NCBI GenBank assembly: GCA_963727625.1
Contig: CAVSHR010000006.1
Location: 205,547-269,546 of the forward strand
DNA length: 64,000 bases
Direction: 5' to 3'
Source of the DNA: an uncultured delta proteobacterium
GTDB taxonomy: Bacteria; Desulfobacterota; Binatia; UBA9968
Part shown: positions 29,074 through 31,987 of the stretch, one piece after another
How positions within the stretch are numbered: position 1 is the first letter of the stretch
Layout: each line of letters opens with the position of its first letter
Translations under genes and position numbers: made by a program
Notes under the pieces: model-generated
Database searches by the model: none
What the model saw: the letters and a program-made list of their open reading frames with translations, nothing else
What the model was told of the DNA's origin: nothing

Positions 29074-30417
29074 ATGAGCCAAACTATTCTCATCGTCGAC
29101 GACGAACCGCTCAATCTCGATCTCTTGGAACAGGAGCTGTCCGATCTCGGTTATCCAGTCGATAAGGCAGACGGCGGCCGCGCGGCTTTGGCGCAACTGG
29201 CCGCGAAACCCGCCGATCTCGTTCTACTCGACTACCAGATGCCCGGCTTGAACGGCATCGAGGTATTAGGCGAGATTAAGAAAAGAGAGCCTGGCCTGCC
29301 GGTCATCATCATCACGGCCTACGGCACCATCGAACGCGCCGTCGAAGCGATTAAAGCCGGCGCGGACGATTTCATCACCAAGCCCTTTGACCCAGAGCAT
29401 CTTGCGGTCGTCGTCAACAAAGCCCTGGAAAAAGCCCGGCTTCGCTCCGAAGTGGAATTGCTCACGCGCGAGCTCGCCGGCCGTTATTATCTGGTTGCGG
29501 GAAATAGCATCGCGATGGCGGCGGCGCTGGCCGACGCGAAGAAAGCGGCGCGCAGCACGACTACTGTGTTACTGCTTGGCGAGAGCGGCACCGGCAAAGA
29601 GATTTTCGCCCGCTCGATTCACGAATGGAGCGATCGAGCGGCCCGGCCTTTCGTCGCGATCAACTGCGCCGGACTTTCCAAGGAGTTACTCGAAAGCGAG
29701 CTGTTCGGCCACGAACGCGGCGCCTTCACCGGCGCGCACCAGGCGAAGAAAGGCAAGATGGAAACGGCCGACGGCGGCACGGTCTTTCTCGATGAGGTTG
29801 GCGATATCGCGCCCGAGCTGCAAACCAAGCTGCTGCGCTTTCTCCAAGAGCGCGAATTCGAGCGGGTTGGCGGCATCCAGCCCATCCGCGTCGATATCAA
29901 AATCATCGCCGCGACCAACAAGAATCTCGAGGAAACGGTGCAACGCGGTTCGTTCCGCGAAGACTTGTACCACCGGCTGAACGTCATCGCGATCGCACTG
30001 CCGCCGTTGCGCGATCGAAAAGATGACATCCCCGCCTTGGCGGACTATTTTTTGCGCCGCTTTGCATCGGAGACGAAAAAACCCTTCACCGGCTTGAGTG
30101 AAGACGCCTTGGCTCGGTTGTGCGCCTACGCTTGGCCCGGCAATGTGCGGGAATTGGCCAACGTCATTGAGCGCGGCGTTGTCTTGGGCGACGGCCCTCG
30201 ATTTGCCGCTGATCATTTGCCGGCGCGGATGATCGGCACCGCAGCCGCATCGCCACCGGAGGCAAGACAATTTCACGACGCTGTGAATAGCCACCGCCGC
30301 GCGTTGATCGTCGACGCCCTCGCGCGCGCCCAGGGCAACCGCGCGGCGGCGGCAAAAACCCTCGGCCTGCACCGTACCCACCTGCTCAAGCTGATGAAGG
30401 CGCTCGGGATCACCTGA
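29074..30417 (+). CDS. Sigma-54-dependent (NtrC-family) response regulator
   Basis: Receiver (ILIVDDE...LLDYQMPGLNG), AAA+ module (GESGTGKE, ESELFGHERGAFTGA, RFLQEREFERVGG) and a C-terminal Fis-type HTH (GNRAAAAKTLGLHRTHLLKLMKAL). Confidence 0.92.
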   Translation: MSQTILIVDDEPLNLDLLEQELSDLGYPVDKADGGRAALAQLAAKPADLVLLDYQMPGLNGIEVLGEIKKREPGLPVIIITAYGTIERAVEAIKAGADDFITKPFDPEHLAVVVNKALEKARLRSEVELLTRELAGRYYLVAGNSIAMAAALADAKKAARSTTTVLLLGESGTGKEIFARSIHEWSDRAARPFVAINCAGLSKELLESELFGHERGAFTGAHQAKKGKMETADGGTVFLDEVGDIAPELQTKLLRFLQEREFERVGGIQPIRVDIKIIAATNKNLEETVQRGSFREDLYHRLNVIAIALPPLRDRKDDIPALADYFLRRFASETKKPFTGLSEDALARLCAYAWPGNVRELANVIERGVVLGDGPRFAADHLPARMIGTAAASPPEARQFHDAVNSHRRALIVDALARAQGNRAAAAKTLGLHRTHLLKLMKALGIT

Positions 30418-30942
30418 TCGCTAAAGCGGATTGGCCAACTGTTCTAGCGCGCTGCGACCCCACGGCTCTGCCGATTCCCTCCGTCAATCACCCAAGTTAT
30501 AGCCTTTGGTTGGCGCTTTCGCCGTTAAAATGTTTCACCCTTAAGTCCGATGAATCGAGTTCAGCCGCTCAATGACCTATCGGCGATAGTCGGCCGATTG
30601 GGTGGGAAAGGAAATTACTTTTGGTCTCGGCGCTCCCCCGCCAGAAAAATCAGCCGCGCCCGCTAGGTCTAAACCCGGCACCGCAGCGAATTTCGATCTG
30701 GCATGGCAAGGATTGAGCCGCGATCGGCGCAGCCTGCGCGATGGCGCGCCGATCAAAAAACCCCTCGTTAACGCCTATCGAAGCGTGATTTTCTCCCCGC
30801 ACAGCGGATCTCCCCGAATAAAACAATCTATTGATACCGCGTCGCCTCAATTTGCCGTTGTTACTTCTCATAACGCCCCTAATCGGTCTCGCCAGCGGTA
30901 GACGATTTTCGAAAGAAAAATTTCTAAAATGATATTTTTTTC

Positions 30943-30971
30943 TTGACATACAACTCCTTGTGCCTTAATGT
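30943..30971 (+). promoter_or_regulatory. Sigma-70-type promoter of the micro-ORF unit
   Basis: TTGACA (30943-30948), a 17-nt spacer, then TAATGT (30966-30971). An A/T-rich UP-like tract lies upstream (GAAAGAAAAATTTCTAAAATGATATTTTTTT). Confidence 0.5.
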
Positions 30972-31087
30972 TCGTATCACCTACAAAATATGGGAGGGTT
31001 TTTAGTAACTGTCCGTCTTCGCCTGAGTTATGTTTTTACACCTGTCAACTGAAAAGCCCACCCTTGGAATCCTAAAAGGAGGTGCTT

Positions 31088-31138
31088 ATGGCTGCTAAGA
31101 AAAAAGCCAAGAAGAAAGCCAAAAAGAAAAAGAAGTAA
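31088..31138 (+). CDS. 16-codon lysine-rich micro-ORF (MAAKKKAKKKAKKKKK)
   Basis: Strong RBS AAAGGAGGTG ending 4 nt upstream of the ATG. The ORF lies between a consensus-like promoter and an intrinsic terminator. Too short for the ORF track. Confidence 0.45.
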   Translation: MAAKKKAKKKAKKKKK

Positions 31139-31222
31139 GCATGGAGTTGTGAGGTTGTGGTAGTGGTGGTTTGAACCCTCCTTACTCTCAGGCGACAAGG
31201 TAACCGTTCTGGTTGCCTAATA

Positions 31223-31265
31223 CACAGAGCCCTCCGACATTACACTCGGGGGGCCTTGTGTTTTT
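31223..31265 (+). terminator. Rho-independent terminator
   Basis: CACAGAGCCCTCCG pairs with CGGGGGGCCTTGTG (14 positions: 11 Watson-Crick pairs, two G-U, one mismatch). The loop is 10 nt, followed by TTTTT (31261-31265). Confidence 0.6.
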
Positions 31266-31423
31266 AGCCTCGCGTCATTCGAGTTAATCTCAAAATCGCA
31301 TCTGCAGCATTACGGTGTTCGATAGGCTGGCGTAACTTTCATTAGGAACTTTTTAAAGTCCTAACACGTTAGCCAAATTGGGAGGGTTGCGTAGCCCTAT
31401 CCGGTTGGCTACTGTTAAGTCTC

Positions 31424-31987
31424 ATGACGATCCGATTCCTTTACCGCCTCCGGTATGTGATTGTGCTTACTGCGAGTCTGTTGACGCTTGATGTTGCGCC
31501 GCTGGGGAGTCAGTCGAGAGTCGATTACAAAGCGGTACCGATTCTGCAGCCGATGAAGGACCGGTCCCCCACGCCGGATTTTAGTTTGACCACGCCTGAG
31601 GAAAAAAAAATTTCACTCAAGGATTTCCGCGGTAAAGTTGTTTTGCTGAATTTCTGGGCGAGCTGGTGCGTGCCCTGTCGCGAAGAAATGCCGGCAATGG
31701 AAAAACTCTATCAGGAGTATAAAGGAAGCAATTTTGTCGTCTTGGCCGTGGCCGTAAAGGACCGTAAACAAGACGCCGTCGATTTCGTCAAGGAGCTTAA
31801 AATTACTTATCCCATTGCGCTCGATCCCGACGCCCAAGTGGGCAATCTGTACGGCGCTTGGGGATTACCCGCGACCTATTTGATCGGCGCAAAAGGCGAA
31901 GGCTTGGCGCGCGGCTGGGGACCGGCGGAGTGGTACAGCCAGGCGGCGCGCAAATTGATTAAAGATCTGGTCGACGGCAAACGATGA
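31424..31987 (+). CDS. TlpA-like periplasmic thiol:disulfide oxidoreductase
   Basis: Signal/anchor sequence, then [18 protein letters not shown] and [13 protein letters not shown] overlap with ccdA. Confidence 0.88.

Follow-up and report, generated by a model that had tools for sequence, protein, structure and literature searches.

A putative polycation micro-gene conserved in a structured transcription unit of Binatia

We examined a window of 64,000 nucleotides (nt) from an uncultured soil bacterium of the class Binatia, recorded as a delta proteobacterium (assembly GCA_963727625.1, contig CAVSHR010000006.1, positions 205,547 to 269,546), in which a gap between two genes carries a 16-codon, lysine-rich open reading frame (ORF) that we call the micro-ORF. 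Judged from its substitution pattern, the micro-ORF is a real coding gene under protein-level selection. It lies in a conserved, bounded unit that, on comparative grounds, is independent of its neighbours, and covariation endows the predicted RNA with a clamp between its 5′ and 3′ parts, a hairpin and a terminator. The reading that we favour, and regard as somewhat probable, is that the unit is an independent, single-copy and probably highly expressed gene for a free 16-residue Lys/Ala polycation (13 to 34 residues elsewhere in the class) that would bind cellular polyanions.

The lysine-rich micro-gene and its distribution

The micro-ORF (31088–31138; this and all other features of the unit lie on the + strand) consists of 16 codons followed by TAA and encodes MAAKKKAKKKAKKKKK, with 12 lysines and a net charge of about +12. 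It is preceded by a near-ideal ribosome-binding site (RBS), AAAGGAGGTG (31075–31084), whose GGAGG core ends 6 nt before the ATG, and AAGGAGGT is invariant at this site in an alignment of 26 close relatives (A1). Among 21 genomes of the same genus, the variable sites of the ORF are distributed over the first, second and third codon positions as 1/0/9, the 13 nucleotide versions of the first 15 codons specify only two peptides, and pairwise codon differences are overwhelmingly synonymous (252 vs 12 non-synonymous). A collection of 109 metagenome copies gives the same picture, in that the 52 copies with the 16-residue form comprise 27 nucleotide variants that encode three peptides, with variable sites at the three codon positions of 1/2/11. 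Changes in length are in frame (gains of 6 and 12 nt in family f2 and a loss of 3 nt in some members of the genus), and both the N-terminal MAAKKKA and the spacing of the alanines are conserved at the level of the peptide. The ORF thus combines a properly spaced Shine-Dalgarno (SD) sequence, an excess of third-position changes and exclusively in-frame insertions and deletions, as expected of a small coding ORF. AAA and AAG codons are used about equally (129 vs 144) and the length of A-runs varies between 5 and 10 nt, which argues against selection for slippery A-tracts.

An earlier annotation made from the window's letters (the sequence-only reading) had offered three roles for this ORF, namely a very basic small protein, a translation-sensing leader or a dual-function RNA, and had proposed that related genomes be compared for conservation of the peptide versus the RNA structure. 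Both proved to be conserved, with covariation in the latter, and the first of the three roles is the one favoured by the third-position substitutions, by the in-frame length changes and by the recurrence of the same peptide type on unrelated untranslated regions (UTRs) elsewhere. Two alternative reading frames were rejected: a 20-codon leader ORF from the ATG at 30990 is not conserved in frame and has no RBS, and an upstream GTG start (MLMAAKK...) would place its initiation codon within the SD sequence. No other Lys-rich ORF of 8 to 60 codons with an SD sequence exists in the 6.6 Mb genome, and the gene is single-copy.

The unit is found throughout much of the class. A DNA search with a 400-nt block recovered it from 21 of 24 same-genus genomes (76–92% identity) and, in a second family of the same order, from all five genomes (about 69–70% identity). 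A covariance model built from the 26-sequence alignment, run on 301 Binatia genomes representing 118 genera, matched 99 genomes in 57 genera, roughly half of those sampled. A 19-nt pattern from the 3′ UTR matches at least 120 contigs from soil and sediment metagenomes. All class members examined have a Lys/Ala-rich ORF of 13 to 34 codons behind a core of GGAGG or GGGAGG; AKKKAPAKKK is common to the longer forms, and insertions of Pro, Gly and Ser occur. In the sister family f3 (G026–G040 and G233–G310; more than 19 good genomes) no copy was detected by DNA search, by the covariance model or by a start-pattern search, the last of which demanded M-x-x-K-K-K, was not exhaustive and returned ordinary gene starts only. 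This absence may reflect loss of the gene or its divergence past recognition. Several public records of metagenome-assembled genomes from the window's own genus (L040, L091, L063) are labelled Chloroflexota, Syntrophobacter sp. SbD2 or ‘delta proteobacterium’, and these labels are likely to be taxonomic errors.

Similar genes are present outside Binatia. The pattern of an SD sequence followed by MA(A/T)KKKAK, run on species-representative genomes, yielded more than 120 loci, of which about one-tenth are Binatia units and about half are tiny ORFs of Acidobacteriota (MATKKKAKKKKH, MATKKKAKKKKKH, MAAKKKAKKKR and others), with further loci in Verrucomicrobiota, a Brevinema spirochaete, Planctomycetia and other groups. 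The acidobacterial units are complete, comprising a TTGACA promoter, a conserved leader of about 115 nt, the ORF, a hairpin and a terminator, and their UTRs are unrelated to those of Binatia. It is the peptide type rather than the RNA that is shared across phyla, and this favours a function in the peptide. Examples with an unannotated ORF of 12 to 13 codons, MATKKKAKKKK(K)H, are L027 (5933–5968, minus strand), L037, L062, L068 and about 50 other loci, and in these units the terminator is followed by UUUUCC, a tail complementary to the RBS ACGGAGG.

The gap that holds the unit extends over 1006 nt (30418–31423), between a gene for a sigma-54 response regulator that ends at 30417 and a gene for a TlpA/AhpC-type redoxin that starts at 31424. 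It had been described as a gene-free region of about 1 kb that is richer in A/T than its surroundings, which agrees with a GC content of about 0.40–0.43 across the unit compared with 0.57 in the whole window. The elements that the sequence-only reading had listed in and around this unit are borne out by the sequence with small corrections of coordinates, and occur in the order UP-like tract, TTGACA promoter, leader of about 110 nt, strong RBS, ORF and terminator. In A1, alignable sequence begins at the UP-like tract and ends at the T-run of the terminator; the block between them is kept in 21 of the 24 same-genus genomes and across the class, and its flanks do not align. Conservation bounded in this way represents the footprint of one transcription unit. 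This observation, together with the separate conserved promoter of the downstream gene, upholds the earlier proposal that the unit is self-contained.

The promoter region starts with an A/T-rich UP-like tract (30911–30942; class-wide consensus TTTAAAAAAAAATTTCCAAAATGGCATT), at which conservation begins both in the 26 relatives and in other families of the class. This tract is followed by a −35 hexamer, TTGACA (30943–30948), where ATTTTTTTCTTGACATAC is invariant in the 26 aligned relatives, then by a 17-nt spacer and the −10 hexamer TAATGT (30966–30971). All parts of the promoter proposed by the sequence-only reading are therefore present, but its −10 element agrees with TATAAT at only three of six positions, and a consensus scan did not call a promoter here. 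The aligned −10 element in relatives is TATAAT or TATACT with an 18-nt spacer, and TTGAC is retained in 15 of 16 more distant class members examined (TTGAT in L191). Transcription would be expected to start near 30978. The UP-like tract and the consensus −35 element are conserved class-wide, and most lineages outside f2 and the window's own subgroup add a near-consensus −10 element and a GC-rich discriminator. In Escherichia coli, such a layout is typical of the growth-rate-controlled promoters of rRNA, ribosomal-protein and fis genes. The arrangement suggests abundant, growth-coupled expression. No similar promoter occurs elsewhere in the genome within nine mismatches.

Architecture of the RNA

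RNAalifold and pair counting applied to A1 revealed three supported elements, which are the terminator, a hairpin (P3) and a long-range helix (B:B′). A second, class-wide alignment (A2) was also used, and since it had been fitted to the covariance model, its helix arms were re-inspected by eye. The long-range helix, which is the main feature of the RNA and was overlooked by the sequence-only reading, is formed by CGCCTGAG (arm B, 31020–31027) and CTCAGGCG (arm B′, 31187–31194), and closes a loop of about 160 nt that holds the RBS and the whole ORF. In the window it comprises nine base pairs (bp), owing to an additional pair between T31019 and A31195. The helix is 100% paired and almost invariant in A1. 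In A2, seven of its eight pairs have changed in both partners and 98% of cells are paired, and among the B/B′ variants seen by eye are CCACAGAG/CTCTGTGG, TGCCTGTG/CACAGGCA, TGTCTGTG/CACAGACA and GTCCGAGG/CTTCGGAC. At the outermost pair, 97 environmental copies carry C-G (66), U-G (7), U-A (4), A/G (19) or A/C (1).

Hairpin P3, AAGGTAACC-GTTCT-GGTTGCCT (31197–31218), follows arm B′ and shows compensatory changes in five of eight pairs in A1 and in seven of eight in A2. The terminator (31222–31265), whose stem core was located by a terminator scan, shows such changes in 8 of 13 pairs in A1 and in all 13 in A2. Its covarying, GC-rich stem and U-run lie at the end of the conserved block, as expected of Rho-independent termination. 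A strong intrinsic terminator ending in T5 had been claimed earlier with a 14-position stem; the terminator and its T5 (31261–31265) stand, but the stem has 16 positions with one mismatch (31222–31237 with 31246–31261) around an 8-nt loop. Perfect long-range inverted repeats of at least 8 bp arise in 83 of 500 shuffled sequences, which makes complementarity alone non-significant, so the helices are credible only through the comparative data. On these data, the clamp, the hairpin and the terminator each covary as base-paired structures would. The predicted fold as a whole is better than that of shuffled sequences (z = −2.3).

A different pairing had been noticed from the sequence, between GGGAGGGTT in the leader (box A, 30992–31000) and AACCCTCC (31174–31181) downstream of the ORF. 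Box A is an SD-like purine box, and its GGGAGGG hardly varies within families f1 and f2. Its partner is the core of box A′, AACCCTCCTTA (31174–31184), a pyrimidine-rich, anti-SD-like element directly 5′ of B′ that keeps ACCCTC in 25 of the 26 aligned relatives and reads ATCCTC in the remaining one. The proposed pairing is conserved (95.7% of cells paired), but it shows no compensatory change and crosses the better-supported helix B:B′, so that it would have to form a pseudoknot or belong to an alternative state. Across homologues, the predictions of a nested folding model switch between A:A′ and B:B′ (mean probability 0.25 vs 0.43). Box A′ of the window is complementary to the RBS as well as to box A, and the RBS:A′ pairing is likewise preserved in 97.3% of cells with no compensatory change. 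Sequestration of the RBS by A′, possible on paper, was rejected because the folding model never predicts it (probability mass 0.00). A second exact copy of GGGAGGGTT at 31380–31388, downstream of the terminator, was also rejected as a third pairing partner, as it is absent in all 25 relatives and overlaps the −35 element of the neighbouring gene; it is probably coincidental.

In most other families the long-range helix continues inward, where a purine box that directly follows B pairs with a pyrimidine box that directly precedes B′. The pyrimidine box occupies the same position class-wide, and the inward-extending purine box is gone from the window's family. Pairing between UTRs has precedents in bacteria, such as Staphylococcus aureus icaR, in which an anti-SD motif of the 3′ UTR pairs with the RBS, and an SD-like sequence near the 5′ end serves as the mRNA stabiliser STAB-SD of cryIIIA (Bacillus subtilis and B. 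thuringiensis). The unit resembles both of these systems in having a long-range UTR–UTR helix, a CCUCC-type box in the 3′ UTR that is complementary to the RBS, and an SD-like GGGAGGG near the 5′ end. It differs from icaR in that helix B:B′ leaves out the RBS.

The remainder of the region between ORF and terminator had been described as about 85 nt of G/U-rich sequence. This description fits only the first 30 nt or so past the stop codon, where a tract with GG-N-GG repeats (31143–31173) keeps its composition in relatives and not its sequence; the rest consists of the pyrimidine box, the arm of the long-range helix and the covarying hairpin. The G/U-rich, GG-repeat tract is located 3′ of the ORF in f1 and f2 and at the 5′ end of the transcript in f7, f13, f15 and f18 (CTGGTGGTGGGTGGCTGA...GAGGTGGAGG; L183–L196), and could form a two-tier G-quadruplex or serve as an SD-like standby site. 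Farther along the 3′ UTR, ACAAGGTAACCGT (31195–31209) nearly equals the junction of 16S helices h44 and h45, which in the organism's own 16S gene (contig C6, minus strand, outside the window) reads ACAAGGTAGCCGT, and P3 resembles a truncated h45. A mimic of the h44/h45 junction was considered and rejected because the P3 stem covaries freely in relatives, and the likeness is probably coincidental.

Function of the peptide and competing explanations

In the reading that we prefer, a sigma-70 promoter with its UP-like tract and perfect −35 element would give rise to a transcript of about 290 nt that ends at the strong intrinsic terminator, and the ORF would be translated from its near-ideal RBS, as the substitution pattern indicates. 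The long-range helix would place the RBS and ORF in a closed loop, followed by the hairpin and then the terminator. This fold most likely stabilises a very short mRNA and, with the anti-SD-like pyrimidine box beside the 3′ arm, probably sets the level of translation or feeds back on it. The peptide is envisaged as a free miniature of a histone-H1-like or protamine-like tail that acts by its charge on rRNA or ribosomes, on the nucleoid, on other RNAs or on polyphosphate, as its composition suggests. Function would therefore lie in the peptide and not in the act of translating lysine codons.

The sequence-only reading could place the unit in no known family, and our searches agree. Rfam 15 gave no match at E ≤ 10 for either strand of 30300–31600, and for nine analogous loci of other phyla no Rfam family other than tRNA reached its gathering score. 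With six long class members (20–34 residues) as queries, Pfam returned nothing at E ≤ 10, and hence no link to HC2 (PF07382), and NCBIfam returned only a meaningless match at E = 8.8. Eight longer relatives of 27–34 residues were looked up in a collection of 15 billion proteins, and none was present. A literature search on small ORFs that are rich in lysine or encode polylysine turned up no account of genes of this kind, and to our knowledge none has been published.

Besides the tiny polybasic ribosomal proteins discussed below, the closest known systems are the chlamydial protein Hc2 (HctB), which binds DNA (PMC2848022), and the lysine-rich, H1-like AlgP of Pseudomonas, which associates with polyphosphate granules (PMC9239181). 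These proteins have the same low-complexity Lys/Ala/Pro composition and a variable number or length of repeats, comparable to the AKKK of the peptide described here and the AKKKAPAKKK of its long forms, and they presumably share with it a charge-based mode of polyanion binding. However, they exceed 150 residues and contain many repeats, whereas the Binatia product is a free 13- to 34-mer with its own structured micro-mRNA.

Several points weigh against our preferred reading. The transcript, its translation and the peptide are deduced from sequence, and the binding partner solely from composition. Conservation of lysine codons would also be seen in an ORF that senses lysine. Conservation of the UTRs is far above what a plain mRNA would need, so that an additional function at the RNA level is possible. 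A free 16-mer may be too weak a binder to organise DNA, and the lack of a detectable copy in f3 makes the gene appear dispensable.

An alternative that we consider unlikely is that the product is a dedicated ribosomal micro-protein that occupies a defined rRNA pocket, in the manner of bS22, eL41, bL37 or bTHX, with its structured mRNA serving as an autoregulatory site. Many mRNAs for ribosomal proteins carry such sites, and bS22 itself is bound in a pocket of the 30S subunit formed by h2, h27, h44 and h45. Like bS22 (with its analogues eL41 and mS38), bL37 and bTHX, the peptide is very short, extremely basic, free of acidic residues, missed by gene callers and likely to be highly expressed. 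Its gene is single-copy, its sequence is nearly invariant within the genus, its promoter layout resembles that of stringently controlled promoters, and its mRNA carries an anti-SD-like box. Tiny polybasic ribosomal proteins are routinely left unannotated: the bS22 of Borrelia, with 30 residues of which 61% are Lys or Arg, was missed by annotation and found only through cryo-EM density, and the authors expect bS22-like proteins in more bacteria (PMC10618245). Also in favour of this alternative, a six-frame search of the window's own genome with PF08213 (bS22 / COX24_C) produced nothing at E ≤ 10, and nine other genomes with polylysine ORFs gave nothing at E ≤ 1, with a positive Corynebacterium control.

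The same searches led us to reject identity with bS22, together with the absence of any likeness, by eye, to the sequences from Borrelia, Flavobacterium and Mycobacterium (supplement of PMC10618245). bS22 proteins have about 30–33 residues with a mixture of Arg, Lys and His, whereas the 16-residue peptide consists only of M, A and K, with no Arg, His or Asn and none of the residues that the aligned bS22 sequences have in common; it varies from 13 to 34 residues within one class, and its binding to ribosomes is putative. The variation in length and the insertions of Pro, Gly and Ser fit a low-complexity polycation that acts by charge better than a ribosomal protein shaped for a pocket. Further points against a ribosomal protein are that family f3 has no detectable copy, that the gene is not linked to ribosomal genes, and that the likeness of P3 to the h44/h45 junction is not kept in relatives.

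A broader proposal, which we offer as speculative and doubtful, is that polylysine micro-genes are widespread, essentially uncatalogued and among the shortest conserved coding genes, and that the Binatia unit is a circuit for charge homeostasis. The free polycation would bind the clamped mRNA from which it is made, either in the G-rich tract or in the anti-SD-like box beside the 5′–3′ helix, charge neutralisation would lock a fold in which translation is off, and the level of the peptide would track the amount of unoccupied polyanion (rRNA, DNA or polyphosphate). In a bolder variant, the 13- to 34-mer would be released inside the exit tunnel of the ribosome and would modulate or park ribosomes there.

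Whatever their role, genes of 13 to 34 codons are shorter than most gene callers will accept, and their products would be invisible to tryptic proteomics because trypsin destroys such peptides. An unannotated micro-gene that is clearly selected at the protein level throughout an entire class of bacteria, and that resembles genes found in several phyla, exposes this blind spot of annotation. If the peptides are abundant polycations, the ribosome, nucleoid or polyphosphate biology of many uncultured soil lineages would include a component that has so far been overlooked. The covariation-supported clamp around the micro-ORF also provides a concrete model of possible stabilisation and control in very short mRNAs.

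We give little credence to the view that the unit is mainly a regulatory RNA or a dual-function small RNA, whose boxes would have other RNAs as targets or would titrate a protein, and whose ORF would mainly control the fate of the RNA. The very strong conservation of the UTRs, with the invariant boxes GGGAGGG, CGCCTGAG, ACCCTC and a GTTCTGG loop, fits such a role, as do the fold that beats its shuffles, the hairpin-plus-terminator 3′ end typical of stable small RNAs, and a pyrimidine box of the kind that pairs with SD sequences. However, most of the invariant boxes are explained as arms of internal helices, and the extended clamp of other families hides the pyrimidine box within it. Phyla that share the peptide type have unrelated UTRs, selection on the peptide is clear, no Rfam family matched and no target emerged.

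Neighbouring genes and independence of the unit

Within the genus, genes for the redoxin and for CcdA always lie downstream of the unit, and the upstream neighbours vary. In most other families the next gene encodes an alpha/beta hydrolase (L197–L213), and in f2 the next gene begins 0–25 nt past the terminator at three of five loci. The hydrolase gene has no tblastn match in the window's 98%-complete genome, in which the unit is nevertheless kept almost unchanged, and in this genome the redoxin–CcdA pair has moved beside the unit. Across these settings we found no lysine-related gene and no conserved dependent gene downstream. From the end of the stop codon at 31138 it is 48 nt to B′ and 83 nt to the terminator stem, so that a terminating ribosome cannot reach or remodel either the clamp arm or the terminator.

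These arrangements bear on the remaining proposal of the sequence-only reading, a translation-sensing leader. In the form of this idea that we considered, ribosomes stalling or sliding on Lys codons would switch the pairings and control read-through into the downstream genes in response to lysine or Lys-tRNA. The micro-ORF shares with the attenuator leaders hisL, thrL, pheL and trpL a very short ORF rich in one amino acid (12 of its 16 codons specify Lys), a terminator and alternative pairings nearby. Consistent with such a switch, nested folding allows only one of A:A′ and B:B′ at a time and the predicted ensembles toggle between them, a gene in the same orientation is conserved downstream within each family, and the next gene is close to the terminator at three of the five f2 loci. 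Unlike those leaders, the unit precedes no cognate biosynthetic operon, the ribosome would not overlap A′ (31174), B′ (31187) or the terminator (31222), conservation extends beyond the codon run to the whole peptide, including MAAKKKA and its alanine spacing, and the unit persists after loss of a neighbour. Given also that the downstream genes (a TlpA-like redoxin and CcdA here, the hydrolase elsewhere) have no relation to lysine, that the redoxin gene has its own promoter, that AAA and AAG are used about equally and that A-runs are not conserved, we regard a lysine-sensing leader as very improbable and conclude from the gene arrangement that the unit does not act as a leader for its neighbours.

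The promoter of the redoxin gene is represented by a conserved promoter-like element, TTGCGT-17-TACTGT (31387–31415; TAGAGT in relatives), that ends 8 nt before the ATG at 31424. No SD sequence precedes this gene, and its mRNA is probably leaderless or nearly so because the promoter-like element is so close to the ATG. In the GC-richer 5′ half of the gap (30602–30949), two overlapping ORFs of 99 codons are present on opposite strands, neither of which has a Pfam match.

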